Shown here: piece by piece, positions 17,172 to 54,200 of the stretch
Numbering within the stretch: position 1 is the stretch's first letter
Layout of the letters: each line of letters begins with the position of its first letter
Source: Candidatus Bathyarchaeia archaeon
GTDB lineage: Archaea; Thermoproteota; Bathyarchaeia; Bathyarchaeales; Bathycorpusculaceae
Direction of reading: 5' to 3'
Length of the DNA stretch: 64,000 nt
Assembly (NCBI GenBank): GCA_049972525.1
Contig: JBMFKI010000004.1
Location: 15,879 to 79,878 of the forward strand
The notes under the pieces: model-generated
The model's database searches: none
What the model saw: the letters and a program-made list of their open reading frames with translations, nothing else
Told to the model about the DNA's origin: nothing
Program-made: the position numbers and the translations under genes

Positions 17172-18872
17172 ATGGAAAAACACACGCATGACATAGTTAT
17201 AGTTGGCGCTGGACTTGCAGGGTTAAGGGCTGCAGTTGCCGCCGCGGAAAAAAGTAAGAAACTGGATATAGCAGTGGTGTCGAAGCTTCACCCGATACGC
17301 TCGCATTCAGTCTGTGCGCAAGGCGGAACAGCGGCTGTAATGCGTGAAAAAGACTCCTTTGATTTGCATGCTTTCGATACTATTAAAGGTGCAGACTACC
17401 TCGCAGACCAAGATGCCGTGGAATTCTTTGTGAGACAAGCACCTAAAGAAATAATTTTAACAGAACATTGGGGGCTGCCATGGAGCAGAACAGCGGATGG
17501 AAAAATAGATCAACGCCCATTCGGCGGTCACAGTTTTCCAAGGGCATGTTTCGCGGCGGACATGACTGGCTTCCATGAGATGCACACGCTTTATGGAAAA
17601 GCAACATCATATAGCAACGTGAAATTTTATGACGAATGGTTCGCAACCTCGCTAATAGTTGAAGATAACACAGCGGTTGGTCTGACAGCGATAGAGCTTA
17701 AGACTGGCGAGATGCATGCATTCAAAGCGAAAGCAATTGTGATGGCTACTGGAGGACACGAGCGCATATATGAATTCACAACATTTTCCTACACAACAAC
17801 TGGCGACGGAATGGCGATGGCATACCGCGCGGGAGTGCCACTTGAAGACATGGAGTTCGTTCAATTCCACCCAACAGGCTTGGTTCCGTCAGGAGTGCTA
17901 ATCACAGAGGGCGCTAGGGGAGAAGGGGGATACCTACTAAACGGTAAGGGAGAACGCTTCATGAAGAATTATGCTCCAGAGAAGATGGAGCTTGCCCCAC
18001 GTGACGTTGTTTCAAGAGCAGAACAGACAGAAATACTTGAAGGAAGAGGTTTTGAAGGACCATATGGACCATACATAGCCTTGGACTTAACACATCTTGG
18101 CGAGGAAAAAATAAACGAGCGTTTACCGTTAATACGTGAAGTCGCCATAAAACTAGGAGGAGTTGACCCAGTTAAGGAGTACATACCAATAAGGCCAGCA
18201 GCGCACTATTCCATGGGTGGAATAAAAGCCAACATAAAAACAGAAACACCAGTCGCTGGATTATATGCCGCTGGCGAATGCTCATGCATAAGCATCCACG
18301 GCGCAAACAGGCTTGGAACAAACTCGACAGCGGAATGCCTAGTTTTCGGAGCAGTTGCTGGGGAAGAAGCTGCAAAACACGCTTTGTCAACCAGTTTTAA
18401 GGAAATCCCAGGGGAGAAGCTTGCTTTAGAGGAAAAACGTGTCTATGACGGAATTTTGGGCAGTGAGGGGGGAGAGAAAGTTTCGGCTATTAGGGATGAA
18501 ATGCGCCGCACAATGAACGAGAAGGTATGGATTTTTAGAAGGGGCGACCAGCTTGAAGAAGCCCTAAAAAAGATAGGGGAACTTAAAAATCGATCCAAAC
18601 GGATAAAAGTTGAGGATAAACGCGGACCATTCAACAGCGGGCTCACGGAAGCCTTACAGCTCGACTTCATGCTAGACTTGGCAGAAGTCACTGTATACTG
18701 CGCGCTCGCCAGAACCGAGTCCCGCGGAGCACACACACGAAGAGACTATCCAAAAAGAGATGACGCAAACTGGCTTAAACACACATTAGCATACCGCACA
18801 CGAGACGGACCAAGACTCGAGTACATTCCAGTCACAATAACAAAGTGGACGCCAGCTGCAAGAACCTACTAG
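17172..18872 (+). CDS. tfrA: Fumarate reductase / succinate dehydrogenase flavoprotein subunit (TfrA-like)
   Basis: FAD motifs [30 protein letters not shown] and HGANRLG. No membrane-anchor genes are adjacent. Confidence 0.85.
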
Positions 18873-18894
18873 TCATAGGGGGCGTGTAAAGGAC

Positions 18895-20460
18895 ATGAAC
18901 GTTAAAGTTGAAAAAGTTGTTGAGTTTAAAATTCACCGTTACGACCCAGAAGATAAGAGGCATTATGTATCCAAATATAAAGTGCCGATACGCAAGGGCA
19001 CGACGGTGCTTGACGCGTTAAGCTATATTAGGGACAACCTGGACGAAACATTGAGTTTTAGGCATTCATGCAGAATGGGCATATGTGGAAGCTGCGGAGT
19101 CAACATAAACGGAAAACCCATGTTAGCATGCTACACGCAAGTGCTTGATCTAAACTCAGACTCGCTTGAGATCGCCCCACTTTCAAACTTGCCTGTGATA
19201 AAGGATTTAGTAGTGGATACTGAACCGTTCTTTGAAGCTTTCAAGAAAATTAAGACCGTATTGATAAAACCTGAAACAGAACTTGTAAAGATGGTTGAGT
19301 TCGTTCAATCGCCGATAGACCTTAAAAAATACTGGGACTTAACACTGTGTACAAAGTGTTCAATTTGCTATTCAGCATGCCCCGCGGCAATAGATGAAAA
19401 ATTCCTTGGACCCTCAGCGCTAACAGCAAATTACAGGTTCCTCGCAGATTCAAGAGATGAAGGAGCAGATGAAAGGTTAAAACCCATGGCGAATAACATA
19501 TGGCTCTGCACACAGTGTAACTCATGCACGCTCTTCTGTCCGAAACAAGTTGACTGCGCAAGCGCCCTGGTTAATGACCACTGTTTGCTGGTTGAAGCTG
19601 GGAACATTCCAAGAACAGTTAAGGATGTGCTTGAAAGCGTTTACAAATACAATAACCCTATGGGAACGCATCAAAGCAAGAGGATGGATTGGGCTAAAGG
19701 ATTGAACGTTAAGTCTTACCCATTAGTTACTGAAGCTGAGGTCTTACTGTTTGTTTGCTGCTCGAATGCCTTTGACGCTAGAAATCAAGAAACTGCAAGG
19801 ATTACGGCTTCGATACTCGATAAGTTGGGTGTCAGTTATGCAACTTTAGGCTCTGAAGAATGGTGCTGCGGAGACCACATACTAAGGATGGGCGAAAAGG
19901 GATTATTCGAAGTTTTAGCAGAACACAACATTTCAATGTTCAAAAAATTCAATGCCGAAAAAATTCTAACATTGTCACCGCACTGCTACAACACGTTTAA
20001 GAATGATAAGCCATACAGCGAAGCAAATCTAAACGTGCAGCATTACACGCAGTTTTTAGCTGAAGCAATAAGCTCAGGTAAGCTTAAACTTTCAAAAACT
20101 GTTAAAAGGCGAGTGGCTTATCACGATCCATGCTTCCTAGGTAAACGAAACAACATATTTGATGAACCAAGGCGGATTCTGCAGACAATAAACGGTTTAG
20201 AGCTTGTTGAAATGAGAAGAACGAGGCAAAGCAGCTTCTGCTGTGGTGGCGGCGCTGGGAGAGTCTGGACTGAAGAGGCTCCCGCTGAAAAGAGACCAGC
20301 AGTTGAAAGGGTTAAGGAAGCGTTGGAGTTGAACGTTGACACAATAGCAGTAGCGTGTCCCTACTGCATCACAACACTTGAGGACGCCATCAAAGTGTTA
20401 GATGTTGAAGGCAAAATCGCCGTTAAGGATATCCTTGAACTCGTAAAAGAAGCAATTTGA
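18895..20460 (+). CDS. tfrB: Fumarate reductase iron-sulfur subunit fused to an HdrD-like CCG-domain module (TfrB-like)
   Basis: The N-terminal SdhB-type part has CRMGICGSCG ([2Fe-2S]), CTKCSICYSACP and CTQCNSCTLFCP. The C-terminal half has two CCG motifs (WCCGDH, FCCGGGAG) and ACPYC, and is clearly homologous to the HdrD-like protein at 50625..51746. Confidence 0.75.
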   Translation: MNVKVEKVVEFKIHRYDPEDKRHYVSKYKVPIRKGTTVLDALSYIRDNLDETLSFRHSCRMGICGSCGVNINGKPMLACYTQVLDLNSDSLEIAPLSNLPVIKDLVVDTEPFFEAFKKIKTVLIKPETELVKMVEFVQSPIDLKKYWDLTLCTKCSICYSACPAAIDEKFLGPSALTANYRFLADSRDEGADERLKPMANNIWLCTQCNSCTLFCPKQVDCASALVNDHCLLVEAGNIPRTVKDVLESVYKYNNPMGTHQSKRMDWAKGLNVKSYPLVTEAEVLLFVCCSNAFDARNQETARITASILDKLGVSYATLGSEEWCCGDHILRMGEKGLFEVLAEHNISMFKKFNAEKILTLSPHCYNTFKNDKPYSEANLNVQHYTQFLAEAISSGKLKLSKTVKRRVAYHDPCFLGKRNNIFDEPRRILQTINGLELVEMRRTRQSSFCCGGGAGRVWTEEAPAEKRPAVERVKEALELNVDTIAVACPYCITTLEDAIKVLDVEGKIAVKDILELVKEAI

Positions 20461-20571: not shown

Positions 20572-22455
20572 ATGATGCACGGCTATGCTGGTCGAGTACT
20601 CCACGTAGATTTAGCAACAGGAAAAACACATGTTGAACCATTAAATGAGGATTACGCAAAAAAATACATCGGCGGAATAGGCTTAGGAATGCGCCTATGG
20701 CTTGACCATTCACAAGCAGGAGTCGACCCATTCAGCCCAGAAAACCCTTTGATTCTAACAGTAGGTCCAATAGCTGGCACCGTCTGGCCCACAGGTGGAA
20801 ATGGACATGCCTTCATTTCGAAATCGCCACAAAGTTTTGGAATAGGTGAATCGAAATCCCACGGCTCCTTCGGTGCTGAAGTGAAAAGGGCTGGATACGA
20901 TGCTGTGATCTTTAAGGGTAGGGCTGAAAAACCCGTTTACGTGTGGATTGACGATGACTCGGTTCAGCTTCTCAATGCTTCGCATTTAATGGGAAAGTCT
21001 CCAGCAGACACAGAAGATGCGATAAAGGATGAGTTGGGCGACTACTACATTCGCGTTGCAGCCATAGGTCCGGCGGGAGAGAAACTGGTTCGAATAGCAT
21101 GCATAATAAATGAAAAGACAAGGGCTGCTGGCAGATGCGGATTGGGTGCCGTTATGGGTTCGAAGAATATTAAGGCAATTGCTGTTCGCGGAACACACGA
21201 TGTCAGCGTCGCGAAGCCAGATGAGTTTCTCGAGTTTGTCAAGGAGTTTCACGAAAGAATGAAAGGCCCAGCCACACAAAAATATAGAACATTAGGTACA
21301 CCTGAAAATGTTCTAGTTCACAACGCTCTACACTGCATGCCAACAAGAAACTATAACAACGCACATTTTGATATGGCGGAAAAAGTAAGCGGAGAAGCCC
21401 TAAACGAAAGGTTTGTGGCGAAAATTATTGGTTGCAGTTCGTGCGCCATGCGATGCGAACATATTGCTGTTGTTCCCGAAGGACCATACAAGGGTGCCAT
21501 GGCTCGAGTTGAATATGAGCCGTTATGGGCTTTGGCACCCTACTGTGGAATAGATCGCCTTGACGCTGTAATTAAGGGAATAGAACTTTGCAATTATTAT
21601 GGGATAGACGCTATAGGCGCTGGCGTTATAGTTGGCTTTGCCATGGACTGCTACGAAAATGGAATATTAACACTGGAAGACCTTGACGGGATAGACGCCA
21701 GATTCGGCAATCATGAAGCCATGGTCAAACTTGTAGAAAAAATGGGCAAACGTGAAGGGATAGGCGACATCCTTTCAGAAGGAGTGAAATTCGCCGCTGA
21801 AAAGATAGGAAAAGGAGCAGAAAAACTAGCACAGCACATCAAAGGAGTGGAAGTTACTGGCTACGACCTTCGATCCCTAAAAACAGCTGCTTTAGGCTTT
21901 GCCGTTTCCTTCCGTGGAGCAGACCATAACAGACATGGAGCCTACGCCTTTGACGTTAAGGGAAAAGTCAACCGTTTAGTTGCTGAGAAGGGTAGAGGAA
22001 GAATGGTTAAAGACATCGAGGACATATACACCATTATCGACTCCTTAATCATTTGCAAATTCTCAAGGGGAACGTACTACAAGGAATTCGAAGACTTAGC
22101 TAAACTTTACACGCTTGTTACCGGCTTCGAAACAACACCACAAGAGATGAAACTTAAGGGCGAAAGGATAAACAACCTTGCAAGGGTATGCAACGTCAGA
22201 GAAGGCTTCAGTAGAAAGGATGACACCCTACCATACAAAGTTATGCATCTTCCAATACCAGATGAAGGACCATCAAAAGGAGCTTATGTAACACAAGAAG
22301 AATTAGACTTGCTTTTAGACGACTACTATGAAGCCAGAGGATGGAACAAAGATGGCATACCAACCGCGGAGAAGCTGAAGGAACTCGCCATGGAAGATTT
22401 GATTCCAATAATTGAAAGAAAAATTGGAAAAAGCGGAGGAAAACTGGAGGAATAG
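20572..22455 (+). CDS. aor: Aldehyde:ferredoxin oxidoreductase family (tungstopterin enzyme)
   Basis: 627 aa. The N-terminus GYAGRVLHVDLATGK...YIGGIGLG is typical of the AOR family, with a Cys-containing [4Fe-4S] region (CSSCAMRCEH). Confidence 0.85.
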   Translation: MMHGYAGRVLHVDLATGKTHVEPLNEDYAKKYIGGIGLGMRLWLDHSQAGVDPFSPENPLILTVGPIAGTVWPTGGNGHAFISKSPQSFGIGESKSHGSFGAEVKRAGYDAVIFKGRAEKPVYVWIDDDSVQLLNASHLMGKSPADTEDAIKDELGDYYIRVAAIGPAGEKLVRIACIINEKTRAAGRCGLGAVMGSKNIKAIAVRGTHDVSVAKPDEFLEFVKEFHERMKGPATQKYRTLGTPENVLVHNALHCMPTRNYNNAHFDMAEKVSGEALNERFVAKIIGCSSCAMRCEHIAVVPEGPYKGAMARVEYEPLWALAPYCGIDRLDAVIKGIELCNYYGIDAIGAGVIVGFAMDCYENGILTLEDLDGIDARFGNHEAMVKLVEKMGKREGIGDILSEGVKFAAEKIGKGAEKLAQHIKGVEVTGYDLRSLKTAALGFAVSFRGADHNRHGAYAFDVKGKVNRLVAEKGRGRMVKDIEDIYTIIDSLIICKFSRGTYYKEFEDLAKLYTLVTGFETTPQEMKLKGERINNLARVCNVREGFSRKDDTLPYKVMHLPIPDEGPSKGAYVTQEELDLLLDDYYEARGWNKDGIPTAEKLKELAMEDLIPIIERKIGKSGGKLEE

Positions 22456-22459: not shown

Positions 22460-22966
22460 ATGGTTAAAATTCACGAAAGAAAATTCGTCGCTGCAGACCC
22501 AGACAAGTGCGTTGGCTGTCAAGTCTGTGAATACATCTGCTCATTTACAAAAGAGAAGTCCTTTAATCCGCTGAAGTCGCGAATAAGAGTCGTTCGACTG
22601 AATCCTCTGGTGAACGTGGCGATAACTTGCCGATTATGCGAAGACCCCCCATGCGTCGCTGCATGCCCCAGAGATGCCCTAACACAGTCCGAAGAAACAG
22701 GCATAATAATGGTGGACGAAGATAAATGCAATGGATGCGGATGGTGCATTGAAGCATGTGACTACGGGGCAATAATGATACATCCAGAGAAAAAAGTCGT
22801 GTTTGTCTGCGACCTATGCAAAGACAAGGGCGAGCCCCAATGCGTTAAGTGGTGTCCTGAAGAGGCGTTAGACTTTGTTACAAGCGATGTCCTCGCCCAG
22901 AAAGCTAGGATTGCGGCCACAAAGAAGCTTTTCCAAGAAGCAATGAAAGTAGCAACTAGAACATAA
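22460..22966 (+). CDS. Multi-cluster 4Fe-4S ferredoxin (AOR-associated electron-transfer subunit)
   Basis: Four Cys clusters: CVGCQVCEYIC, CRLCEDPPCVAACP, CNGCGWCIEAC, CDLCKDKGEPQCVKWCP. The ATG at 22460 follows a GGAGG 5 nt after the aor stop. The track ORF begins at 22412, inside aor. Confidence 0.75.
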   Translation: MVKIHERKFVAADPDKCVGCQVCEYICSFTKEKSFNPLKSRIRVVRLNPLVNVAITCRLCEDPPCVAACPRDALTQSEETGIIMVDEDKCNGCGWCIEACDYGAIMIHPEKKVVFVCDLCKDKGEPQCVKWCPEEALDFVTSDVLAQKARIAATKKLFQEAMKVATRT

Positions 22967-23003: not shown

Positions 23004-23498
23004 TTACGAGAGAGCACTAAAAAGTAAATCAGCAATTTTTTTGGCTGACGCCTCAACTTCCCTAGTTAAACCTTCTCCAAACTCGGCATTTTTGGGCTGT
23101 ATAAGCAGTAAAGCGATTTTTGCGCCAGTTGCTTTTGAGACGTATTCACAAAAAACACGTAGTGGAAGCACATGCGTCGAAAAAGCCGGGAACGTTGCAA
23201 GGTTTTCTGAGTGTAGAAGTTTTGCCTCACCTGGCTTCAGATTTAAAATTGCTGCGTCTACTAGTAGGATGTGGGTTGGGTTGAAGTCTATTATTTGCTG
23301 TATGAAACTTTCTGGGACTGTTTCACATTCTATAAGATACACCTTTTCAGAAACTTTGCCGCGTAGATTTTGGACGATTTTTACCCCAACAAAATCGTCC
23401 ATGCGTATTGGATTTCCAATCCCAGCGATAACTATTTTCCGCGCTTTTGAAAGCCACTTTTTCAACTCACTTTCAAGATTATGCTTTTTATCAGTCAA
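23004..23498 (-). CDS. [NiFe] hydrogenase maturation endopeptidase
   Basis: IAGIGNPIRMDDFVGVKIV motif (GxGNxxxxDD) and a downstream STHVLP histidine. 164 aa, 39 nt downstream of mvhA. Confidence 0.8.
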   Translation of the reverse strand: MTDKKHNLESELKKWLSKARKIVIAGIGNPIRMDDFVGVKIVQNLRGKVSEKVYLIECETVPESFIQQIIDFNPTHILLVDAAILNLKPGEAKLLHSENLATFPAFSTHVLPLRVFCEYVSKATGAKIALLLIQPKNAEFGEGLTREVEASAKKIADLLFSALS

Positions 23499-23537: not shown

Positions 23538-24992
23538 TTACCTTTCCACGGTTTTGAGCAGTTGCTTCTTGCTGTTGTAGATTTCTATTGTCAGTGGCAT
23601 CTGCCCAACCGCAAAATGCGTGGCGCATCCGAAACATGGGTCGTAAGCCCTAAAAGCCATCTCAACCATGTTAAGTATTGTATGGTCAACTTTGTCGCCG
23701 TGTATTAAGCCCTTAGCCGCATTCCTAATAGACATGTTTATGGATGGACTGTTATTAACCGTTGCAACTATCAGGTTCACATCCTTAATAAGCGCATTCT
23801 CATCCAAAACGTAATGGTGAATCAATGTCCCCCTCGCTGCTTCAACTACACCTATGCCCTCTCCTGGTTCGCCTGGCTTGTTGCGCACATCCTTGCTCGT
23901 TATTTCAGGATCTTTGCTCAATTCTAAGGCTCTCTCGGAAGCGTAAAGCAATTCGATAAGCCTAGCCCAATGATAGGCAAGCGTTGAGTGAACTGGTTTT
24001 CCGCCAAGCGTCTTATACATGAATTCATACTCCTCCTGCGCCAGTGGCGTTGCCATGCCATCTGCAGCGTTAAGCCTTCCAAGAGGCCCAACACGGTACG
24101 CACCACTTTCCGGACCGTCAATGAAGCCTTTCCATCCAATTTTCTTCAAATATGGAAACTTAACGTAAGTCCATTCTTCAACATGTTCACCAATGTGATC
24201 AAGATAGTCTTTAGCTTCGAACTTCAAGAACTCCATGCCATGCGGGTCTACCACCCTAATCTTGCCATCGTAAAAGTTCACATTGTTGTTTTCGTCAACT
24301 AACCCCATGTAATAGGTCTTCAGCGTGTACGCGTCGCTCCTAATCAAGTCGACGTATTTGCTGTTCCCGAGAACAAGGTCGTGGAAAAGCTTGAGCGAAA
24401 ACTTTGCAAAGTTCACAGTTGAAGAAGCCATTTTCTCAATTTCGCTCCGTTCTTCTTCGCTTAATGGCTTAGAGATTCCGCCTGGTAATCCACAGACAGG
24501 ATGCGTGGCTTTTCCGCCAATTATTTCCGTTATTCTTTGACCATAAGCCCTATGCTTTATGACTTCTTTGCCGATGTCTAATCCAGCCTTTTCAATGACG
24601 CCTATAATATTTCTTTTTTCCGGAGGAGCGTCTGGTCCGACTATAAAGTCTGGTCCACCCAAATAATAGAAGTGCAACGTGTGGTCATAAATAAAATAGC
24701 CGCAGTACATGAGCTCCCTAAGTTTTTTAGCCGCTGACGGTGGATCCACGTTGAACGCTGCATCTAAGGTTTTTGTTCCAGCCATGTGATGAGCTACTGG
24801 ACATACGCCGCAGATTCTACTCGTCAAAAGTGGCATATCCTCAGCTTTTCTTCCTATGCAAAACTTTTCGAAGCCTCTAAGCTCTGGAATTTGCATGTAA
24901 GCATTTTCCACTTCGCCTTCATCGTTTAGGAATATGGCTATTTTCCCGTGTCCTTCAAGCCTTGTTATCGGGTCGATGATAACCTTTTTCAT
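23538..24992 (-). CDS. mvhA: F420-non-reducing (Mvh-type) [NiFe] hydrogenase large subunit, copy 1
   Basis: RLEGHGKI, N-terminal Ni ligands RICGVCPVAH, C-terminal DPCFGCATH followed by a cleavable extension. Confidence 0.9.
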   Translation of the reverse strand: MKKVIIDPITRLEGHGKIAIFLNDEGEVENAYMQIPELRGFEKFCIGRKAEDMPLLTSRICGVCPVAHHMAGTKTLDAAFNVDPPSAAKKLRELMYCGYFIYDHTLHFYYLGGPDFIVGPDAPPEKRNIIGVIEKAGLDIGKEVIKHRAYGQRITEIIGGKATHPVCGLPGGISKPLSEEERSEIEKMASSTVNFAKFSLKLFHDLVLGNSKYVDLIRSDAYTLKTYYMGLVDENNNVNFYDGKIRVVDPHGMEFLKFEAKDYLDHIGEHVEEWTYVKFPYLKKIGWKGFIDGPESGAYRVGPLGRLNAADGMATPLAQEEYEFMYKTLGGKPVHSTLAYHWARLIELLYASERALELSKDPEITSKDVRNKPGEPGEGIGVVEAARGTLIHHYVLDENALIKDVNLIVATVNNSPSINMSIRNAAKGLIHGDKVDHTILNMVEMAFRAYDPCFGCATHFAVGQMPLTIEIYNSKKQLLKTVER

Positions 24993-25972
24993 TTTCTCAT
25001 AATCCTCCTTCGCAGAATTGAAGCTGGCAAAGCGTACATGTAAAACGTGCCAATTGGATCCTTTATTTGGCTGATCAGTTTTTCAACTTCCTCCTCTGTG
25101 TACTTCTCTTTCTCTTCCTCTAACCCCAATATGGAAGCTAAAGCGCTTATCATCGCAGCTCCCTGTTCTGGCGAGTTCGGGCATGGTCCACCGCATCCTG
25201 TGCATGGCATGTTAGCCTTTAGGCATCTTGCACTACATCCGCCTCTCGTGGCTGGTCCCATGCATATTATTCCCTGTTCAAGCAAGCATCTTTCAGGGTC
25301 CGGTGTCTTTTCATAAACCCTATATATCTTAGAGATTTTCTTGTTTTCTTTCTTTCTTGGACATTCATCACAAACCGATTTAAGTGGTGCTAGAACAGAA
25401 CCTTTAGGTGGCAATTCGCCCTTTGCTATAACGTCTAATGCGTAAAGTGTGCGTTCAACAGCTGGTGGGCAGCCCGGAACATAATAGTCCACGTCCACTG
25501 TTTGGTCAAGTGTTCTAACTGTATCGTAAAATTCTGGAATTTCTAATTCGCCTTCTTTAACAGTTACTTTTGGTTTCGGTACAGTTCCATTTGGGTTTAC
25601 CGTTGAAAATGTTGTTTTGTAAACTTTCTCGAAAATCTCCTCTTTATTGGTCATGTTTGCCAGTCCTGGGATACCGCCAAGTTGGGCGCAAGCACCATAA
25701 GCAACTAAAAATTTTGATTTTTGCCTTAGAAGTTTAGCCATGTGTTCTTGTTCGCTGTTGCGTATTCCACCGTTGAAGAAGCACACGTCTATGTATTTGT
25801 CTGGCATTTCTTCGACGTCTTTGTATTTTATGTCCATTGCAACTGGCCAGAAAACTATGTCAGCTAATTGTAAAACGTCCAGTATTTTCTCGTTTATGTC
25901 TAAAACTGCGATTTCGCAGCCTCCACAACTTGCAGCCCAATAGAATGCGAATTTCAATTTTGCTTTGGCCAT
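24989..25972 (-). CDS. mvhG: Mvh-type [NiFe] hydrogenase small subunit, copy 1
   Basis: FYWAASCGGCEIAVLD, GCPP, and distal cluster cysteines CMGPATRGGCSARCLKANMPCTGCGGP. It overlaps mvhA by 4 nt. Confidence 0.85.
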   Translation of the reverse strand: MAKAKLKFAFYWAASCGGCEIAVLDINEKILDVLQLADIVFWPVAMDIKYKDVEEMPDKYIDVCFFNGGIRNSEQEHMAKLLRQKSKFLVAYGACAQLGGIPGLANMTNKEEIFEKVYKTTFSTVNPNGTVPKPKVTVKEGELEIPEFYDTVRTLDQTVDVDYYVPGCPPAVERTLYALDVIAKGELPPKGSVLAPLKSVCDECPRKKENKKISKIYRVYEKTPDPERCLLEQGIICMGPATRGGCSARCLKANMPCTGCGGPCPNSPEQGAAMISALASILGLEEEKEKYTEEEVEKLISQIKDPIGTFYMYALPASILRRRIMRK

Positions 25973-25973
25973 C

Positions 25974-27423: not shown

Positions 27424-27859
27424 CTTGTTTTCCTCCCATTTTCAAAGGGTTTGGACCAAGCTTCTTAATCTGTTCAACCATGTCTCGGACTACGGCTGCA
27501 AATTTGTCTCCCTCGCCGGCGGAAACCCATTCCAGCCGCACACGTTCGGGTTCTATCCCAAAATCTTTAAGCACTTTCTTTAATAGCGTTACTCTTCGCA
27601 AAGCCTTAAAATTACCACTAAGATAGTGGCAGTCGGATGGAAGGTGGCAGCCAGCCACCAAAACACCGTCAGCTCCATTTTTCAAGGCTTCTATTATGAA
27701 GGCTGGGTCTATTCTTCCACTACACATAACGCGGATAACACGGATGTTCGGTGGGTATTGGATTCGACTTACACCAGCCAAGTCTGCACCAGCATAGGCA
27801 CACCAGTTGCATAGAAAACCAACAATTTTTGGTTCAAAATCCGTTTTGGCTTCGCTCAT
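27416..27859 (-). CDS. mvhD: MvhD (hydrogenase delta / [2Fe-2S] adaptor subunit)
   Basis: IVGFLCNWCAYAGADLAG...VMCSGRIDP...AGCHLPSDCHY is the canonical MvhD/FlpD pattern. 147 aa. It overlaps both neighbouring genes. Confidence 0.85.
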   Translation of the reverse strand: MSEAKTDFEPKIVGFLCNWCAYAGADLAGVSRIQYPPNIRVIRVMCSGRIDPAFIIEALKNGADGVLVAGCHLPSDCHYLSGNFKALRRVTLLKKVLKDFGIEPERVRLEWVSAGEGDKFAAVVRDMVEQIKKLGPNPLKMGGKQGE

Positions 27860-41766: not shown

Positions 41767-41767
41767 T

Positions 41768-45643: not shown

Positions 45644-45806
45644 CCATCCCAGCTTGGATGTGGATGTGAAAAGGAAGCAGAAATTAAAACTTTATGCCAC
45701 ATAAATCACATTTTGCTTGCAAAAATGCAGTGAAAACTATAGGGGAGGGGTTAGAAATCGAATAGACCTCCTAGGCAGCTACAATTCGCCTTTATCGAAA
45801 ACTAAA

Positions 45807-48037
<2,231 letters not shown>

Positions 48038-48045
<8 letters not shown>

Positions 48046-49270
48046 TTTTCTTTGCCTCCGAAGTTTCAATTTTTAAAGCAGGCATCAAAGCTATCTTCTT
48101 GAAAAACTCCTCAAATTTCTTGTTGAATTCTCCAACACAACGAGGTGAAACCGTGAAAAGCTCAAAACGTTCAAGAAGCCCCCTCTTTTTCAGAAAATCT
48201 TTAAGCACATCCACATTTCTCTCGGCTGTTTCCCTTCCCTCTTGAAGTTTGCAGTCCTCAGCCGAGCAGACAACAGCCATTACGCCGTCAAAGCCGCTGT
48301 GCAAAGCTTCAACAACATGAACTGGGTCAAGAGACTTAAAACATGGAATCTCCATGGCTACAGCTCTCTTCTTGAAAAGTAGGCATTCTGGGTCGTCTAG
48401 GCACGAAAAGTCTGACCATTGACAGCAGAAAACGAGGATCGATGGAAAGTTGGCTTCCGCCTTCAATTTTCTGGCAGCTTCGCCATAAAGCCTTATCAAC
48501 CTGCTAATGTTTTCAAACTCGAAACCCTCAACCTGAATTGCCAAATGTGGACAAACGAGTGCGCAGGCGCCGCATCCCATGCACGCTTCTTGAATTATTT
48601 TTGGCGTTGCAAACTCTTCAGCTTCTATCGCGCCGTATGGACATATGAAAACGCATTTGTCGCAGCCGACGCATTTTTCAGTGTCGTAAACAGCTTTATG
48701 CGAGTACTTAATAACCTTCAAAGCGTCTTTACTGAAGCCCAACTGCTCAAGCACGGCCTTGCCAAGCATAAGCCTTCTAGTGTTGATTTTTGTTCCCCTT
48801 TTAAAGCGGCAGAACTCGTCTTCACATTGTATGGAAACAACATATTTTACGCCAGAGTTCAAAGCCTTAAAAATAAATTCTGTCGGCACCCGCCCTGAGC
48901 ACGGTATACGTAGGGGAATATAATCCCTTATTTTCAAGCCTTGGCTTTCAAGTATTTCTTCAATTTTGCATGTTGCTGGCGAGTTGCCGCGGCACATGAG
49001 AACAAGTGTGTCGCTTCCTTTTTTCTCGCGTATGCGGTTAAGATATCCTATCAGATTATCATAACTGTAATAGACAATTTCTATGGCAAGCGAGGGACAA
49101 GCACTGTAGCAGATTCCGCAAACTTGGCACTTCTGAATGTCAATTTCGAAGTTGCCGCTTTCCAAATCCCGCCTTATAGCCTCATAGGGGCAGACGGAAT
49201 AACAAACTGCACATTTACTGCAATAATCCTGATTTATGCGTACAGCGGCTGCACACGCCTCCTCACTCAT
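48038..49270 (-). CDS. Duplicated [2x4Fe-4S ferredoxin + MvhD-like domain] protein
   Basis: Repeat 1: CSKCAVCYSVCP, CQVCGICYSACP, then LVLMCRG...IPCSGRVP...IQCEDEFC. Repeat 2: CVGCDKCVFICP, CMGCGACALVCP, then LVFCCQW...IPCFKSLD...VVCSAEDC. Its stop overlaps the nfnA-like GTG start by 8 nt. The alternative GTG start is at 49285. Confidence 0.7.
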
Positions 49271-49374
49271 GAAACATTTCTCCACCGTTCTAGTGAAACT
49301 TGCCTTATGATTAATACATAGGCTTAGAAGATTTTTGAGGCATCTCCAATGATATAATAGTTTTGGAGCACAAC

Positions 49375-50310
49375 CTATGGTTTATAATAGTAAGGTCTAC
49401 GAATAAAGCCATAAGCTTCAACAGCCGCGGTTATGCCTTGACCAACAGCTGTTCCAACTTGCTTCACCGGGTGATTCGTAACGTCTCCAGCAGCGTAAAC
49501 CCCAGGAATGTTTGTTCTTTGACGAATGTCAACTATGATGTAGCCTTCTTCATTTACAGCTACGCCTGCTTCTTTGGCTATTTGGCTGTTCGGGTCTTCG
49601 CCTGCTTGGATGAAGACGCCGTCAACGGGCAGTTCTTTGATTTCGTCAGTTCTATTATTGAAAATTACAGCTTTATTTACGAGTTTTTCGCCCTTAATCT
49701 CCTTAACCTCAGTGTTCCACAAAATCTCCACATTATCCTTTCCTTTCAAAGCGTTCACAAGCGCTTCCTCAGCTCTAAATGCCTCCCGCCTATGAGAAAC
49801 TTTAACTTCTCCTGCAAGCTCAGCTATATACAAAGCTGTCACAACAGCAGCGTTTCCACCGCCAACAACAAGCACACGCTTACCCTTAAACAATGGCCCA
49901 TCACAAATGCCACAGTAACTTACCCCCCTTCCAAGAAATTCTCTCTCACCAGGAACGCCTAATTCGCGATAACGCGAACCAGAAGCAATTATTAAGGCCT
50001 TCGCCTCATAAGTGGTTCTATTAGTTTTCACCAACTTCTTTTCACCTTTCAAGTCTAAGCTTGAGACCCCCTCAAACTCGCGTATGGTGACACCAGCTTT
50101 CCTGCAGTGCGCCGCCATCCTCTGGGCTAACTCTACGCCAATTATACTTTCGAAGCCTGGATAATTCTCTATTTTGGGGGCGTCAGCAGCTGTGCCTCCA
50201 ACAATTTTTTCCTCCAAAATCAACGTTTTAAGTCCGCTTCTCGCGCCGTAGATTCCAGCTGCTAATCCCGCGGCGCCGCCGCCCACGATTATCAGTTCCC
50301 AATTTTCCAT
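49375..50310 (-). CDS. trxB: Thioredoxin-disulfide reductase-like flavoprotein
   Basis: IVGGGAAGLAAGIY, redox CxxC in YCGICDGPLF, second Rossmann VVGGGNAA, and GVYAAGD. The ATG at 50310 is 9 nt from GGAGG. Confidence 0.75.
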   Translation of the reverse strand: MENWELIIVGGGAAGLAAGIYGARSGLKTLILEEKIVGGTAADAPKIENYPGFESIIGVELAQRMAAHCRKAGVTIREFEGVSSLDLKGEKKLVKTNRTTYEAKALIIASGSRYRELGVPGEREFLGRGVSYCGICDGPLFKGKRVLVVGGGNAAVVTALYIAELAGEVKVSHRREAFRAEEALVNALKGKDNVEILWNTEVKEIKGEKLVNKAVIFNNRTDEIKELPVDGVFIQAGEDPNSQIAKEAGVAVNEEGYIIVDIRQRTNIPGVYAAGDVTNHPVKQVGTAVGQGITAAVEAYGFIRRPYYYKP

Positions 50311-50406
50311 GAGGTACATCCTCCTTTTCTAATACTTTTGTTGTTTGCGCTTATCAAGCGTTCGCATTGTTTTAACTGCCTTCACCAATTTCAAAATTGA
50401 GTTCGC

Positions 50407-50625
50407 TTATTTCTGTTTCGTAGCATCGTTGGCATAGCCATCAAAATTTTCATACTCATCTTCATTAATTCCACTACCGCAAACTGAGCAGTAAAACTTC
50501 TTTCCGCCTTCCTCTTCGGAAACCTTACGCTTCTTCTTTTTCTGTTTCCCAAGCAAATCGCTAAATAATTTAGCCGCCACATTAACGTAAAACCATTTTG
50601 AACACAAATCAATAAAGGTTGACAC
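50407..50625 (-). CDS. Possible small Lys-rich protein with a single CxxC (very uncertain)
   Basis: 72-codon ORF with a GTG start overlapping the hdrD-like stop by 1 nt (TAGTG). No recognisable family, and it could be non-coding. Confidence 0.2.
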   Translation of the reverse strand: MSTFIDLCSKWFYVNVAAKLFSDLLGKQKKKKRKVSEEEGGKKFYCSVCGSGINEDEYENFDGYANDATKQK

Positions 50626-51746
50626 TATATTGCTTGAGCAACAAGTTCGGCGATATCCATAACTTGGATTTTACCTTCATTACCAGTTGTTTTCACAGCA
50701 TCCTCAATTGTCAAGAGACAGAATGGACAAGCTACGGCTAATATTTCAGCGCCAGAGGCCACGGCGTCTTTGACGCGTATTTCCGCAAGCCTTGGTCCTG
50801 GAATGTCAACCCACATCCTTCCGCCTCCTCCCTCACAGCATAGGCTTCTGGCTCTTGAGCGGTCAAACTCTAAAAGTGTCACGCCCGGAATGCTTTCGAT
50901 AACTTTGCGCGGTTCTTCGTATATGCCATTTTGCTTGCCTAGGAAGCATGGGTCATGGTAAATCACTTTCTTTTCCACTTCCTTTGTGAATGTCAGTTTC
51001 TTCTCATCTACCAGTTTGGCTAGCAGCTGTGAGTGGTGTAGCGGTTCAAAGTTTGATTGGTTGTAGCGGTTTTTGAAAGCATGAAAGCCGTGTGGACAGT
51101 TTGTAACGACTTGTTTAACTGCGTATTTATTGAAAATCTTCATGTTCTCCTCGACTAAGAATTCGAATAAGCCCTTTTCGCCCATGCCGTAAACTTCGCT
51201 TCCACAACAGTTTTCCTCTTCGCCTAAAACTCCAAAGTTTACTCCCGCTTTTTGAAGGCTTAAGACGAGACTTTTCGCAACGTTTTGGACACGTGGATCA
51301 TAAGCCGACGTGCAACCTACATAGTATAGAATTTCTGCACCTTGAGAGATGTGTTTGACGTTTAAGCCTTGACTCCATTCGGCACGTTTGCTGCGAATTC
51401 TAGCCCACGGATTCCCATTTTTGAATATGCTTTCCAAAGCGTCGCGAATTGTTGGCGCTATCTGACCCTCTTCAACAGCCATGCTTCTAATGTCAATCAA
51501 AAATTCGTAGGGGTTCAAATCCTTGGGACAGCGAACACCACAAGTTGAGCACGTTGTGCAGCTCCACAACTCGTTTTGAGAGTGAATGGTTAGCCTGCCA
51601 AGAGCAGAAACTTCACGCATATAACGTCTAATGTTTAGGTTAGCCTTCTTTGAAACTGGGCAGCTGCCCGTGCACATTCCACATTGTATGCATTCAAGCA
51701 GCTTATGTTTTTGAATGAGCTCTTGAACGTTCATTCTAAACGTCAC
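50625..51746 (-). CDS. hdrD: HdrD-like iron-sulfur/CCG-domain oxidoreductase (soluble)
   Basis: CIQCGMCTGSCP, CTTCSTCGVRCP, then two CCG motifs (NCCGSE, LCCEGGGG) and ACPFC. No long hydrophobic segment. The alternative ATG start is at 51734. Confidence 0.8.
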   Translation of the reverse strand: MTFRMNVQELIQKHKLLECIQCGMCTGSCPVSKKANLNIRRYMREVSALGRLTIHSQNELWSCTTCSTCGVRCPKDLNPYEFLIDIRSMAVEEGQIAPTIRDALESIFKNGNPWARIRSKRAEWSQGLNVKHISQGAEILYYVGCTSAYDPRVQNVAKSLVLSLQKAGVNFGVLGEEENCCGSEVYGMGEKGLFEFLVEENMKIFNKYAVKQVVTNCPHGFHAFKNRYNQSNFEPLHHSQLLAKLVDEKKLTFTKEVEKKVIYHDPCFLGKQNGIYEEPRKVIESIPGVTLLEFDRSRARSLCCEGGGGRMWVDIPGPRLAEIRVKDAVASGAEILAVACPFCLLTIEDAVKTTGNEGKIQVMDIAELVAQAI

Positions 51747-51818
51747 TTTGACTGATTTTTGGGAGTAAGATTTTTAATAAGTGTTTTCCTTCTATGAGTC
51801 AAAACGCACCATTAAATA

Positions 51819-54200
51819 ATGGAGATCATCCTCATGGAGAAGAAGAATCAGCGCATTGGAATTTTTGTTTGCGAGTGCGGCGGGAACATAGGCGACGTGG
51901 TGGACGTTAAGGCTGTCGTTGAAGCTGTTAAAAACTGGAAAAGTGTCGTCGTAGCTAAACAGCACAAGTATTTGTGTTCAAAACCAGCTCAAGAAATGAT
52001 AATAGAAGCCATAAAAAAGAACAATCTGGACCGCGTTATCGTTGCAAGTTGCACACCACGCATGCACTTGCCCACTTTCCAAAGCGTCTTAGAAAGGGCT
52101 GGATTAAACCCTTACATGCTCGAGTTCGTAAATATCCGCGAACAAAGCTCATGGGTTCACGGCCCACACGCATCAGCAGAAGCCACAAGAAAAGCTATAA
52201 GCCTTATCCGAGGCGGATATGAACGAAGTTTCGAGCTTGAACCACTAGAACCAGTAAGCGAGAAAGGCTCAAGGGAAATCCTCATAGTCGGCGGGGGAAT
52301 AGCTGGTATAACAGCTGCACTTGAGCTTGGATATTTGGGTTATAAGGTTCACCTTGTTGAGCGAAAGCCAAGCATAGGCGGTAACATGGCGAAACTTACA
52401 AAGGTTTTCCCCACTTTAGACTGCGCCCAATGTATCTTAACGCCGAGAATGGCTGAAGTTGGAAGAAACCAAAATGTCAACTTGCTCACATACGCTGAAG
52501 TGCAGGAAGTAAGCGGGCGACCTGGCAATTATAAGGTTAAGGTTTTCATGAAGCCTAGAGGTGTTGACGTTGAAAAATGCAGAAGCTGCGGCGTATGCGC
52601 AAAAGTTTGCCCAGTTACCGTTCCAGACGAATTTAATGAAGGCTTAGCTCAAAGAAAAGCAGCTTACATAGAGTTTCCGCAGGCTGTACCATCAGCCTAC
52701 ACTATAGATTTCAACGCCTGCAACAAATGCCGAAAATGCGAACAGCTTTGCCCAGCAAAAGCCATAAACATAGACGACCAAGGCAAGGTCGTTGAACTAA
52801 ACGTTGGCGCAATAATCCTAGCTGCGGGATATCAGCTTTATGATGCGCGGAAACTGGAAATTTATGGTTATGGCACGTATAAAGATGTTATAACAATGAT
52901 GGAACTTGAAAGACTCACATCAGCAACTGGACCAACAGGAGGCTTCGTTAAAAAGGCTGATGGAAGTGATGTGCGGAAAATGGCGATTGTCCTCTGCGCT
53001 GGTTCACGTGACAAGAATTACATTCCATATTGCAGCCGCATATGCTGCATGTACTCACTTAAACAGGCTTTTGTACTTAAGAAAATGCTCGGAATAGACG
53101 TTACAATCTACTACATCGACATTAGAGCAACTGGAAAAGGTTATGAGGACCTGTATTGGCGAGACCAAGAGGCAGGCGTCCTCTTCATCAAGGGTAAAGT
53201 AGCTGAAATCTACAGGAACAACGCCAATGGTAAGCTTGTGGTTTTGGCTGAAGACACGTTGACAGGCGAGGTGCGTGAAGACGAGTACGACATGGTTGCC
53301 TTGGCTACGCCAATGGTTCCATCAGCTGGGCTTAAAGAACTAGCCGAAAAGATGAAAGTGGCTGTTGGCGAAGACGGTTTCATAACTGAAAAGCATCCAA
53401 AACTTGACCCTGTAGATTCACTTGTTGCTGGAATATTCGCTTGCGGTTGCACACTAAGCCCGAAAGATGTGAGGGACACTGTTTCGGATGGTTTAGGCGC
53501 AGCAGCCAAGGCTGCACTCTTCCTAAAAAGTGAATATGTAACAACAAGTCCGGAAAAAGCCTATGTCATTACGGATTTGTGTAACGGATGCCAAGCATGC
53601 ATACCTGTATGTCCAGTTAACGCAATAAGGATGGTTGAAGGCAAAGCGAAGATAGACCCATTCCAATGCACTGGATGTGGCGCGTGCGTACCAACATGTC
53701 CACAAGAGGCAATAGACTTCAAGAACGCAACGACAAAGCAGATTCTCGCCACTTTAAGGGGGGTTTTAGCTGAAAAGCAGGCTGGCGAAGTGCGAATAAT
53801 AGCCTTCGTCGACAAGAACGTTGGGTATACTGGAATGGACTTCTTGGGGTTGGATAGAACTAACTATCCGGAAAACATTCGCATCGTGGCTGTTCCCTCA
53901 ACAGCAATTTTAGGACTGAAACATGTTCTATACGCTTTTGCTTACGGTGCTGACGGCATCCTCGTAATTGAGGGGCAAGAGGAAATTGACGAAAAATTCA
54001 CGAAAAAACGAATGATTGACATGGGAAGGGAACTGGCCAAATACGGCATAGAATCAATGCGGGTGCGCTATAGCTATGTTCCGCTGCCAGTTTACAAGAA
54101 GGCAGCAGAACTTTTTACAATGTTCACTGATAGAATAAAGAAGTTTGGACCAGTCGCTGAGGAAAAAAGAAATAACATAAAGCAGCAACTAAAAATTTAA
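51819..54200 (+). CDS. hdrA: HdrA-like flavoprotein with C-terminal cysteine-less MvhD-like domain (793 aa)
   Basis: N-domain IGIFVCECGGNIG...ASCTPR...EQSSW, VGGGIAGITAALEL, FPTLDCAQCIL, inserted ferredoxin (CRSCGVCAKVCP, CNKCRKCEQLCP), C-terminal ferredoxin (CNGCQACIPVCP, CTGCGACVPTCP). The tail then aligns to MvhD but has no cysteines. Confidence 0.8.
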   Translation: MEIILMEKKNQRIGIFVCECGGNIGDVVDVKAVVEAVKNWKSVVVAKQHKYLCSKPAQEMIIEAIKKNNLDRVIVASCTPRMHLPTFQSVLERAGLNPYMLEFVNIREQSSWVHGPHASAEATRKAISLIRGGYERSFELEPLEPVSEKGSREILIVGGGIAGITAALELGYLGYKVHLVERKPSIGGNMAKLTKVFPTLDCAQCILTPRMAEVGRNQNVNLLTYAEVQEVSGRPGNYKVKVFMKPRGVDVEKCRSCGVCAKVCPVTVPDEFNEGLAQRKAAYIEFPQAVPSAYTIDFNACNKCRKCEQLCPAKAINIDDQGKVVELNVGAIILAAGYQLYDARKLEIYGYGTYKDVITMMELERLTSATGPTGGFVKKADGSDVRKMAIVLCAGSRDKNYIPYCSRICCMYSLKQAFVLKKMLGIDVTIYYIDIRATGKGYEDLYWRDQEAGVLFIKGKVAEIYRNNANGKLVVLAEDTLTGEVREDEYDMVALATPMVPSAGLKELAEKMKVAVGEDGFITEKHPKLDPVDSLVAGIFACGCTLSPKDVRDTVSDGLGAAAKAALFLKSEYVTTSPEKAYVITDLCNGCQACIPVCPVNAIRMVEGKAKIDPFQCTGCGACVPTCPQEAIDFKNATTKQILATLRGVLAEKQAGEVRIIAFVDKNVGYTGMDFLGLDRTNYPENIRIVAVPSTAILGLKHVLYAFAYGADGILVIEGQEEIDEKFTKKRMIDMGRELAKYGIESMRVRYSYVPLPVYKKAAELFTMFTDRIKKFGPVAEEKRNNIKQQLKI

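Follow-up and report, generated by a model that had tools for sequence, protein, structure and literature searches.

The 64-kb window analysed here, i.e., the whole stretch of DNA at its full length, comes from a hot-spring metagenome-assembled genome (MAG) of the Bathyarchaeia and contains, between positions 17172 and 54200, a block of redox genes of the heterodisulfide reductase (Hdr), Mvh hydrogenase and Nfn types. Module identities were assigned by Pfam profile scans of every plausible open reading frame (ORF) in the window, together with the curated cut-offs of NCBIfam. This domain census by profile hidden Markov models recovered, in their expected places, the parts listed in the original prediction, namely two [NiFe] Mvh hydrogenases (Pfam NiFeSe_Hases and Oxidored_q6, twice each), three HdrA variants, four proteins with two stretches of the CCG domain each, two GltD/NfnB-type modules (Fer4_20 plus Pyr_redox_2), a thioredoxin reductase (TrxR) and an aldehyde:ferredoxin oxidoreductase (AOR). 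The six MvhD-type domains announced there are also present, as six FlpD domains in five proteins (one free-standing, one with a winged helix-turn-helix or wHTH region, two at HdrA C-termini, and two in a polyferredoxin), but one of them is free of cysteines, compared to five to eight per domain in the others, so only five can hold a [2Fe-2S] cluster. An NfnA/PyrK-like partner, missing from that list, has to be added. As had been claimed, no Mcr, Mtr, or Fwd family appeared among the ORFs scanned in the window, and a beta-oxidation operon with EtfBA, the electron transfer flavoprotein (Etf) genes, adjoins the block. Overall, we are dealing with co-located operons of known enzyme types in some new arrangements. 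The GC profile of the block revealed no compositional island, and an ARAGORN scan found no tRNA gene.

The same neighbourhood is common to dozens of Bathyarchaeia species. One genome per GTDB species was scanned with an alignment of the MvhD-wHTH protein (see below), which gave at least 79 loci (numbered with an L hereafter), nearly all of them labelled Bathyarchaeia or Bathyarchaeota, with a few Nitrososphaeria or Thermoproteota and one bacterial label, and these loci were then searched by tblastn with all window proteins. Considering only loci with enough flank (53, or 46 for the AOR-linked ferredoxin), the six-gene core HdrA2x-MvhD-HdrC-HdrB-MvhG-MvhA is complete in 49 of 53, the maturation protease HycI and the flavoprotein GltD-Fd are each found in 45, 30 have a second Mvh-Hdr operon next to the first, and the AOR-associated ferredoxin lies next door in 25 of 46. 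The TfrAB-like genes and AOR stay linked despite a rearranged order in L024, L031, and L081. The local density, described as exceptional in the original prediction, is thus the norm of the class. A gene order shared by dozens of independent assemblies means that the clustering is not a matter of chance and that selection acts on the block. Module identities, cofactor motifs, operon structure, and conservation are matters of direct observation. On balance we favor the reading that they describe a conserved Bathyarchaeia redox supercluster, made of soluble flavin-based bifurcating or confurcating complexes that probably link ferredoxin and a thiol/disulfide couple with H2 and NAD(P)H.

Operon 1 (34058 to 23004, minus strand) comprises ten genes, coding for an RHH-GcvH-like protein (RHH, ribbon-helix-helix), GltD-Fd, MvhD-wHTH, a double HdrA, MvhD, HdrC, HdrB, MvhG, MvhA, and HycI. 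From GltD-Fd through MvhA1 the coordinates leave gaps or overlaps of 8 nt at most, followed by 39 nt between MvhA1 and HycI, and the hdrA-mvhD-hdrC-hdrB-mvhG-mvhA series forms a tight operon. Its hydrogenase is group-3c-like. The large subunit MvhA1 (23538–24992, minus strand; NiFeSe_Hases) carries the motifs RICGVCPVAHH and DPCFGCATH and a C-terminal extension, shares 77% identity with the MvhA2 of operon 2, and has VhuA as best NCBIfam model (447 bits vs. a cut-off of 800), while the small subunit MvhG1 (24989–25972, minus; Oxidored_q6) has VhuG (232 vs. 450). Tested for the features of a methanogen-type hydrogenase, both MvhA copies showed the RxCGxCxxxH and DPCxxCxxH motifs, the latter as DPCF(G/A)CATH, and a small subunit. 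The gene after mvhA1 is the minus-strand HycI-type maturation protease (23004–23498; Pfam HycI), which corrects an earlier note; the plus-strand ORF at this position matches no family. HdrB1 (25974–26867, minus) has two complete CCG motifs (CX31CCX33CXXC and CX40CCX34CXXC), aligns over its full length with methanogen HdrB in PDB (E 1.8e-72), and keeps every cluster ligand, with a TIGR03288 score of 304 for a cut-off of 345. By its Pfam matches HdrC1 (26869–27423, minus; Fer4_8/Fer4_17) is, like HdrC2 of operon 2, an HdrC of the kind with two [4Fe-4S] clusters, scoring 115 against TIGR03290 (cut-off 160), and the free-standing MvhD1 (27416–27859, minus; FlpD, E 8e-57) has five cysteines.

The most peculiar member of this operon is the double HdrA of 1010 aa (HdrA2x, type II; 27856–30888, minus), which matches the HdrA of 5ODC (E 1.4e-226) in three stretches and scores 1059 against the NCBIfam HdrA2 model, with a cut-off of 1100. 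Residues 1–445 comprise a thioredoxin-reductase/FAD domain, an inserted ferredoxin domain, and Cys194/Cys197, and are devoid of the N-terminal iron-sulfur (FeS) and C-terminal ferredoxin domains. An alignment of the two halves shows that they are complementary in Cys197 and the N-terminal FeS domain, and that the equivalents of E356 and K409 are retained in both. All the elements of a methanogen-type HdrA (the FAD site, the N-terminal FeS domain plus Cys197, and the inserted and C-terminal ferredoxin domains) are therefore found in HdrA2x, divided between its halves. Type II HdrA has been attributed to a fusion of classes A6 and A12, A6 lacking the N-terminal FeS and C-terminal ferredoxin domains (PMC12054007), and by this description the A6 class resembles the N-terminal half of HdrA2x. 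Complementary, heterodimer-like double HdrA proteins have been reported in HdrA3/4 of anaerobic methanotrophic archaea (ANME) and in MetFV-Hdr of Moorella (PMC9012536), and many fused HdrA proteins in TACK archaea (PMC11237513). The Cys197 half, without N-terminal domain, comes first in HdrA2x; PMC9012536 gives the opposite order for HdrA3/4, as far as the description can be compared.

Upstream of HdrA2x lie two genes that seem to work as a pair. GltD-Fd (31646–33361, minus; Fer4_20, Pyr_redox_2, Fer4_21) is a GltD/NfnB-like NAD(P)H flavoprotein that passes its NCBIfam model (NF009410, 527 vs. 516) and ends in a 2x[4Fe-4S] domain with 49% identity to the C-terminal ferredoxin domain of HdrA2x (residues 925–998). 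MvhD-wHTH (30892–31638, minus), which starts 7 nt after it, combines FlpD with weak HTH_5, HTH_24, and MarR_2 matches. Its homologs fall into 681 clusters whose named sources are all Bathyarchaeia or Bathyarchaeota except one Nitrososphaerota. An AlphaFold2 (AF2) model (pLDDT 85) superposes the N-terminal domain on MvhD of 5ODC with a TM score of 0.81, and a Foldseek search with this model returned informative matches for the MvhD half and none for the winged-helix half. Wherever both are found, MvhD-wHTH directly precedes HdrA2x in the synteny table. MvhD-wHTH and HdrA2x are duplicated together in tandem in L050, L057, and L077, where GltD-Fd was not detected. In six other loci (L060, L061, L064, L071, L074, and L076) an HdrA-type protein takes the place of GltD-Fd before MvhD-wHTH, this being a second double HdrA of 1004 aa in L060, while in L074 (8318–10750; 810 aa) an HdrA-like protein runs on in frame, at its C-terminus, into MvhD-wHTH. 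The ferredoxin domain of GltD-Fd followed by MvhD-wHTH would then mimic the ferredoxin-plus-MvhD end of an HdrA-MvhD fusion, and we infer that the two proteins form a second, NAD(P)H-linked input module. The second nucleotide site reads GXGXXA in both GltD-type proteins of the block (GGGNTA and GGGNVA). This motif has been contrasted with GXGXXG, which was tied to NAD+ preference (PMC12054007), and from it we only infer that these proteins may prefer NADPH.

Operon 1 is headed, in 50 of 53 loci, by the RHH-GcvH-like gene (33468–34058, minus; Pfam GCV_H plus a weak N-terminal RHH_1). Where E. coli GcvH reads ESVKAASDIY this protein reads ETWMFMFDLY, with the lipoyl lysine replaced by methionine, and it contains no cysteine. 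The same column is methionine in 57 of 68 Bathyarchaeia homologs, most of them also without cysteine. A lipoate carrier of the sHdr/LbpA kind on this protein, a tempting candidate in view of the position of its gene and of a lipoate/biotin ligase-family gene in the window, was rejected on these grounds, and the combination of an RHH domain and a lost lipoyl lysine is better read as that of a regulator, which the protein probably is. In some loci few genes are better conserved than this one, which is 98–99% identical in L039 and L046, compared to approximately 82–93% (some lower) for most of its neighbors, and two tandem copies occur in L062, L066, L070, L072, L073, and L075. Upstream regions aligned from 52 loci share a promoter-like stretch (approximately 34059–34150, minus) in which two TATATAT boxes, at a distance of about 17 nt, are accompanied by a strong TAAAGGAGG ribosome-binding site. 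A lipoate/biotin ligase-family gene (15901–16578) stands just upstream of TfrA, accompanied by a glyoxalase-fold gene that might code for a methylmalonyl-CoA epimerase (both within 15901–16985, minus); with no lipoylation possible on the GcvH-like protein, this ligase probably has nothing to do with the Hdr block. In the interval that separates the two Mvh-Hdr operons, and syntenic in most loci, lie an AbrB/MazE-PhoU-type regulator (34525–35601, plus; Pfam) and, after it, a cysteine-rich protein of 155 aa (35690–36157, plus) that matches no family and keeps about six conserved cysteines across 43 distinct homolog sequences. By eye, parts of the latter recall small heat-shock (Hsp20) proteins.

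Operon 2 (42703 to 36178, minus) is a second Mvh-Hdr set with MvhG2 (41768–42703), MvhA2 (40309–41766), an HdrA-MvhD fusion, HdrC2, HdrB2, and a small zinc-finger-like protein, all on the minus strand. The hydrogenase subunits were identified by Pfam and the NiFe-binding motifs are present. The fusion (type Ia, 807 aa; 37889–40312) has FlpD at residues 680–802 with six cysteines and scores 785 against the HdrA2 model (cut-off 1100). E356 is held to stabilize the bifurcating flavin. In the alignments its equivalent is alanine in the 807-aa protein and most N-terminal cluster cysteines are gone, so that the HdrA of operon 2 may be non-bifurcating. HdrC2 (37351–37866; Fer4_8) scores 129 against TIGR03290 (cut-off 160), and HdrB2 (36476–37351), with two complete CCG motifs (CX31CCX34CXXC and CX39CCX34CXXC), 326 against TIGR03288 (cut-off 345). 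The zinc-finger-like protein (66 aa; 36178–36378) begins 97 nt downstream of hdrB2. It was not called as a gene in L001 or L002 and was found by tblastn in 30 further loci, over which substitutions by codon position number 290/339/942; this dominance of the third position makes the ORF clearly coding. It has seven invariant cysteines and no Pfam or NCBIfam family, and its AF2 model (pLDDT 88) bears a weak likeness to the PARP-type zinc finger, so that a zinc-binding accessory protein looks more likely than a redox carrier.

The third unit (54200 to 45807) consists of an HdrA gene on the plus strand facing, on the minus strand, genes for an HdrD-like protein, TrxR, a polyferredoxin, NfnA, and NfnB. 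The HdrA (793 aa; 51819–54200; Pfam), divergent from the HdrD-like gene, scores 854 against the HdrA2 model (cut-off 1100) and ends in an MvhD-like domain (residues approximately 655–793) that contains no cysteine at all, although its sequence is highly conserved. The same holds for the orthologs in L082–L085, and this conservation of the cysteine-free state implies a structural role without a cluster, the domain being presumably a cluster-less relic or a docking domain. The HdrD-like protein (50625–51746) joins an HdrC-like ferredoxin part to two CCG domains (Pfam, blastp, and motif scan) and is 40% identical by blastp to the C-terminal part of TfrB; in both proteins one noncubane motif is complete and the other is a partial one with four cysteines. 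TrxR (49375–50319) has CGIC and HRREAFR motifs and just passes TIGR01292 (345.3 vs. 343.45). Between these two genes, a 72-aa ORF with a CxxC (50407–50625, minus) is called in same-species assemblies and is absent from the gene calls of the more distant genomes examined, and it is probably not a conserved gene.

The polyferredoxin (48038–49285) comprises two copies of an HdrA-C-terminal-type ferredoxin plus MvhD domain (FlpD twice), an internal duplication as judged from the comparison of the repeat with HdrA-MvhD, with cysteines in both MvhD domains. Its homologs fall into at least 1453 clusters, with named sources almost always Bathyarchaeia or Bathyarchaeota. It is followed by NfnA (PyrK-like, FAD/NAD plus 2Fe-2S; 47200–48069; DHODB_Fe-S_bind; NF004862, 385 vs. 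220) and NfnB (GltD-like; 45807–47219; Fer4_20, Pyr_redox_2; TIGR01316, 650 vs. 472), both above their cut-offs. The nfnA gene overlaps both neighbors, by 20 nt in the case of nfnB. Together with the fixed synteny, the overlap with the polyferredoxin suggests that the Nfn pair could be wired into an Hdr-type complex rather than to free ferredoxin.

Seven contexts of polyferredoxin homologs were compared. The third unit is intact in L082, L084, L088, L089, and L090 as well as in the species of the window, and partial in L083; the divergent pairing of HdrA with HdrD-like is kept in the same five loci. The Etf genes adjoin the HdrA only in the window (and L085), L082, and L088, and four of the seven contexts have the third unit without Etf. 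We had considered that Etf might be wired to the neighboring HdrA and rejected it, this HdrA being always divergent from HdrD-like, followed by TrxR, polyferredoxin, and NfnAB. Gene order thus places the HdrA with the Nfn-TrxR-HdrD unit, and the adjacency of Etf appears to be lineage-local. That adjacent operon (54308–62259, plus; Pfam) codes for EtfB, EtfA, two acyl-CoA dehydrogenases, 3-hydroxyacyl-CoA dehydrogenase, enoyl-CoA hydratase, thiolase, and a DUF35/OB-fold protein. On the other side of the third unit, a protein of 936 aa (42833–45643, minus; Pfam, NCBIfam) fuses the alpha and beta parts of an ADP-forming acyl-CoA synthetase to a GNAT acetyltransferase. Its architecture is like that of the protein acetyltransferase Pat, and it recurs beside redox clusters in L040, L045, L052, L078, L082, L084, L089, and L091.

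At the left end of the block, on the plus strand, we found a TfrA-like flavoprotein of the fumarate reductase/succinate dehydrogenase type (17172–18872; FAD_binding_2, Succ_DH_flav_C), a TfrB-like iron-sulfur subunit (18895–20460; Fer2_3, Fer4_8, and CCG twice) made of an SdhB-like 2Fe-2S/4Fe-4S half and a half with two CCG domains, the AOR (20572–22455; AFOR_N, AFOR_C), and a 4Fe-4S dicluster ferredoxin (22460–22966; Fer4_11), which has 168 aa in the gene calls of L001. The TfrA-like protein passes the SdhA/FrdA model (NF004724, 901 vs. 826) and falls below the TfrA equivalog (506 vs. 718). The TfrB-like subunit aligns with the TfrB model over its full length (7–521 vs. 2–488 of 488), with 315 bits for a cut-off of 385. 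No membrane-anchor gene stands beside the pair, whose neighbors by Pfam are the AOR and the glyoxalase-fold protein. The rest of the left flank contains ordinary housekeeping genes, such as an SMC/Rad50-like ATPase with a metallophosphoesterase (a Mre11-like pair; 640–3929, minus) and the archaeal termination factor FttA (8647–10566, minus); FttA, a proteasome subunit, and a gene of the Fe-ADH_2 family are consistent with an archaeon.

From these arrangements a scheme can be proposed in which electrons of H2 and NAD(P)H would be exchanged, through these complexes, with ferredoxin and with a thiol/disulfide couple at the CCG sites of HdrB, HdrD-like, and TfrB. The product of operon 1 would be an asymmetric Hdr complex fed by both H2 and NAD(P)H, in which one branch reduces ferredoxin by way of the only inserted ferredoxin domain and another, HdrBC, reduces a disulfide. 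GltD-Fd and MvhD-wHTH would dock on the half of HdrA2x without its own C-terminal ferredoxin domain, and MvhAG plus MvhD1 would serve the other half. Operon 2 would be a second hydrogenase-linked Hdr, perhaps non-bifurcating. In the third unit, NAD(P)H chemistry of the Nfn-like and TrxR proteins would feed the two-MvhD polyferredoxin and from there the HdrA and the disulfide site of HdrD-like, while the TfrAB-like enzyme could reoxidize thiols with fumarate. Depending on the growth mode, the system may run forward, from H2 to reduced ferredoxin and thiols, or backward, from thiols and reduced ferredoxin to H2 or NAD(P)H. The reverse run might occur in fatty-acid or peptide fermentation, given Etf and beta-oxidation next door in this lineage. 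Analogous confurcation schemes have been proposed for ANME (PMC9012536). The original prediction had H2, NAD(P)H, Etf, and fumarate all feeding one disulfide pool, and the Etf branch of this idea is weakened by the lineage-local distribution of its genes.

It also proposed a thiol/disulfide carrier different from coenzymes M and B (CoM/CoB). All Hdr, Mvh, and Tfr subunits scored fall below the NCBIfam methanogen equivalog cut-offs, and the SdhA/FrdA, NfnB/GltA-type, NfnA-type, and TrxR models are passed. Such scores agree with enzymes particular to the lineage, with a substrate that is not necessarily the heterodisulfide CoM-S-S-CoB, and together with the lack of methanogenesis markers in the window they are compatible with such a carrier, which we regard as plausible; no candidate for it emerged. 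Several points weigh against our reading of the block. The low scores might just as well be due to nothing more than phylogenetic distance, neither HdrB1 nor HdrB2 has lost any cluster ligand and both can be aligned with methanogen HdrB from end to end, and the window offers no alternative carrier (a CxxC scan found no thioredoxin or glutaredoxin, Trx/Grx, and Pfam no DsrC/DsrE/TusA-type family). A protein disulfide as substrate within the window was likewise discarded, the 72-aa CxxC ORF being probably not conserved and the cysteine-rich 66-aa protein more likely zinc-binding, from its zinc-finger-like model. The degenerate flavin and cluster sites of the 807-aa HdrA-MvhD sit badly with bifurcation in operon 2, the fusion in L074 is one case in 80 and might be a sequencing artefact, and both the direction of operation and the partners of each complex are read from gene order only. 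More comprehensively, one can join the pieces into a methanogenesis-independent thiol cycle with a non-CoM/CoB carrier, in which an HdrA with H2 and NADPH inputs, the Nfn-wired HdrA/HdrD-like/TrxR unit, and the TfrAB-like enzyme would act on the same pool under two new types of regulator (RHH-GcvH and possibly MvhD-wHTH), a picture that, taken as a whole, we find rather doubtful.

Other explanations of the locus have to be weighed against the supercluster. That its gene density is an artefact of assembly or binning, joining unrelated contigs, might be suspected in a MAG, the more so as the region lies on two contigs in GCA_964451155.1. Same-species contigs in that assembly, in GCA_002871255.1, and in one ENA assembly encode the window proteins, and PNIF01000018.1, from a separate assembly, crosses the junction, matching positions 40367–59270 at 99.96% identity, while L001 covers 20892–41638 at 99.94%. 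With two other assemblies at 99.9% identity, and the same gene order in other species, a chimera was rejected and this explanation is hardly credible. A matter of interpretation within operon 1 is whether MvhD-wHTH controls transcription of the operon as a [2Fe-2S] redox sensor instead of being a structural electron-transfer subunit. Its C-terminal winged-helix region is basic and highly conserved, with those weak ArsR/MarR-type matches, and forms a separate helical domain in the AF2 model. The gene is nevertheless embedded in the operon, separated from GltD-Fd and HdrA2x by 3–7 nt. Three loci show a joint duplication of it and HdrA2x, an HdrA-type C-terminal ferredoxin domain comes before it in all arrangements, and in L074 it is part of a fusion with an HdrA-like protein; moreover, its MvhD domain resembles the MvhD that is a structural subunit in complexes of known structure. 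A regulatory function is thus unlikely, although it keeps more weight than any other of the alternatives considered here.

The substrate of the CCG sites leaves room for two further alternatives, both of which we judge improbable and to a similar degree. The Hdr genes could be standard CoM-S-S-CoB paralogs of an Mcr-bearing, alkane- or methane-metabolizing bathyarchaeon with its mcr and CoM/CoB genes outside the window. Some Bathyarchaeia do carry Mcr together with beta-oxidation (PMC8407382), GltD-linked hdrA-mvhADG is known from methane/alkane-metabolizing Bathyarchaeota (PMC12054007), and both the full-length match of HdrB1 to methanogen HdrB, with all its ligands, and the adjacent beta-oxidation operon would fit. 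The cluster is found, however, in at least 79 species-level Bathyarchaeia genomes, and Mcr has been reported in few families only. In PMC8407382 it is limited to Family-7.3, outside the nine families holding 35 hot-spring MAGs (Qi et al. 2021), and three matched relatives, L010, L017, and L067, with 78–93% identity in MvhD-wHTH, fit hot-spring MAGs outside that family by their isolate names only. Besides, HdrB, HdrC, HdrA, VhuA, and TfrAB fall below the methanogen equivalog cut-offs, and 64 kb contain no methanogenesis marker. Our literature search found nothing on CoM/CoB biosynthesis in Bathyarchaeota or on Bathyarchaeum with HdrABC. The other alternative is that the CCG modules act on sulfur species or protein persulfides, as in sHdr or DsrK, or serve only for electron transfer or anchoring, and not on a small-molecule disulfide. 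Polysulfide cycling and DsrE-linked roles have been proposed for the hdr/sud genes of Bathyarchaeia (PMC11631310), one CCG motif is incomplete in each of HdrD-like and TfrB, TrxR is strictly syntenic with the third unit, and operon 1, by opening with a GcvH-like gene, bears a superficial likeness to sHdr-LbpA systems. Against this stand the methionine in place of the lipoyl lysine, the usual lack of cysteine in the same protein, and the failure to find DsrC, DsrE, TusA, Trx, or Grx genes in the window; the gene order is also of the Mvh-Hdr type and not the hdrC1B1A-hyp-hdrC2B2 of sHdr, and HdrB1 and HdrB2 have both noncubane motifs complete, like the CoM-S-S-CoB enzymes.

Bathyarchaeia are among the most abundant archaea of anoxic sediments, and the supercluster bears on how they reduce ferredoxin and dispose of electrons without methanogenesis. 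Its outline will not surprise specialists, the parts being of known kinds and only the arrangements new. The block is conserved in a lineage that has been described, and published work covers the Hdr/Mvh inventory and the question of the heterodisulfide (PMC7886697, PMC8407382, PMC12054007), so that the possibility raised in the original prediction, of a block already characterized in a described lineage, is half true. The genes etfAB, hdrABC, and hdrD were inferred in the class ancestor (PMC8407382), hdr/mvh genes were noted in mcr-less Bathyarchaeia with the disulfide called unclear (PMC7886697), and a fused complementary HdrA and, in Bathyarchaeota, a GltD-linked HdrA beside mvhADG were already described (PMC9012536, PMC12054007). 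We found no paper dissecting this supercluster, the MvhD-wHTH fusion, the RHH-GcvH-like gene, or the Nfn-polyferredoxin-TrxR-HdrD unit. What is added here is the precise conserved gene set, i.e., which genes always travel together, along with several unusual features by which models are restricted (the single-chain, asymmetric HdrA, the proposed input module of GltD-Fd and MvhD-wHTH, the MvhD domain devoid of cysteines, and the Nfn-polyferredoxin-TrxR-HdrD unit). In addition, lipoate on the GcvH-like protein can be struck off as a carrier, tempting as it was. The gene set does not by itself identify the substrate, and it provides a defined target for heterologous expression.

Among the known systems closest to operon 1 is the MvhAGD-HdrABC complex of hydrogenotrophic methanogens (Methanothermococcus thermolithotrophicus, 5ODC, with related cryo-EM structures), with the same module set and strong sequence matches. 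Operon 1 differs in having a single-chain, asymmetric, double HdrA, in the extra GltD-Fd, MvhD-wHTH, and RHH-GcvH-like genes, in scores below the NCBIfam equivalog cut-offs for all subunits, and in a host class mostly without Mcr. With HdrA3/4 of ANME, MetFV-HdrABC-MvhD of Moorella, and the type II proteins in general, HdrA2x shares two FAD domains per chain, the complementary Cys197 and N-terminal FeS domain, and the retained E356 and K409, although it goes together with a [NiFe] hydrogenase and a GltD-like protein and not, as in ANME and Moorella, with FdhB plus a molybdopterin protein or with MetFV. Nfn-type NAD(P)H chemistry is represented elsewhere by NfnAB/SudAB, the NADH-dependent ferredoxin:NADP+ oxidoreductase of Thermotoga and Pyrococcus. 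The translationally coupled NfnB/GltD-like and NfnA/PyrK-like pair resembles it, both subunits being above the NCBIfam cut-offs; it departs from NfnAB/SudAB in overlapping a preceding polyferredoxin with two MvhD domains and in its fixed synteny with TrxR, HdrD-like, and HdrA. The thiol:fumarate reductase TfrAB is known from Methanothermobacter (NCBIfam models NF004900 and NF004898), and the pair at the left end of the block has the same flavoprotein and fused SdhB-like/CCG subunit, with no anchor gene and a full-length alignment of TfrB, although both subunits stay below the equivalog cut-offs and the TfrA-like protein scores better as a generic SdhA/FrdA.

Among systems with an HdrA-MvhD fusion, HdrA2B2C2 of Methanosarcina acetivorans (type Ia; PMC5296606) is the reference, and HdrA2 is the best NCBIfam model for both the 807-aa and the 793-aa proteins. 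In contrast to HdrA2 itself, neither reaches the cut-off, the former belongs to a hydrogenase operon and has alanine at the E356 position, and the latter ends in an MvhD-like domain devoid of cysteines and has HdrD-like, TrxR, polyferredoxin, and NfnAB-like genes as partners. Likeness to the sHdr-LbpA systems ends at the GcvH-like gene, which has lost the lipoyl-attachment lysine here and is accompanied by hydrogenase genes and a different hdr arrangement. The system described in PMC12054007 comes from the same class. That study distinguished HdrA types I, Ia, II, and III, found a type III HdrA with inserted GltD beside mvhADG in methane/alkane-metabolizing Bathyarchaeota, and put forward a coupling of NAD(P)H, H2, and disulfide, with a role for NADH in the case of type III. 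Operon 1 shares with it a GltD-type NAD(P)H module together with HdrA and MvhADG, and is unlike it in that GltD has a gene to itself, includes an HdrA-type ferredoxin domain, and stands directly before MvhD-wHTH, in that the HdrA is of type II, and in that the nucleotide motif is GXGXXA (GGGNTA) and not GXGXXG.

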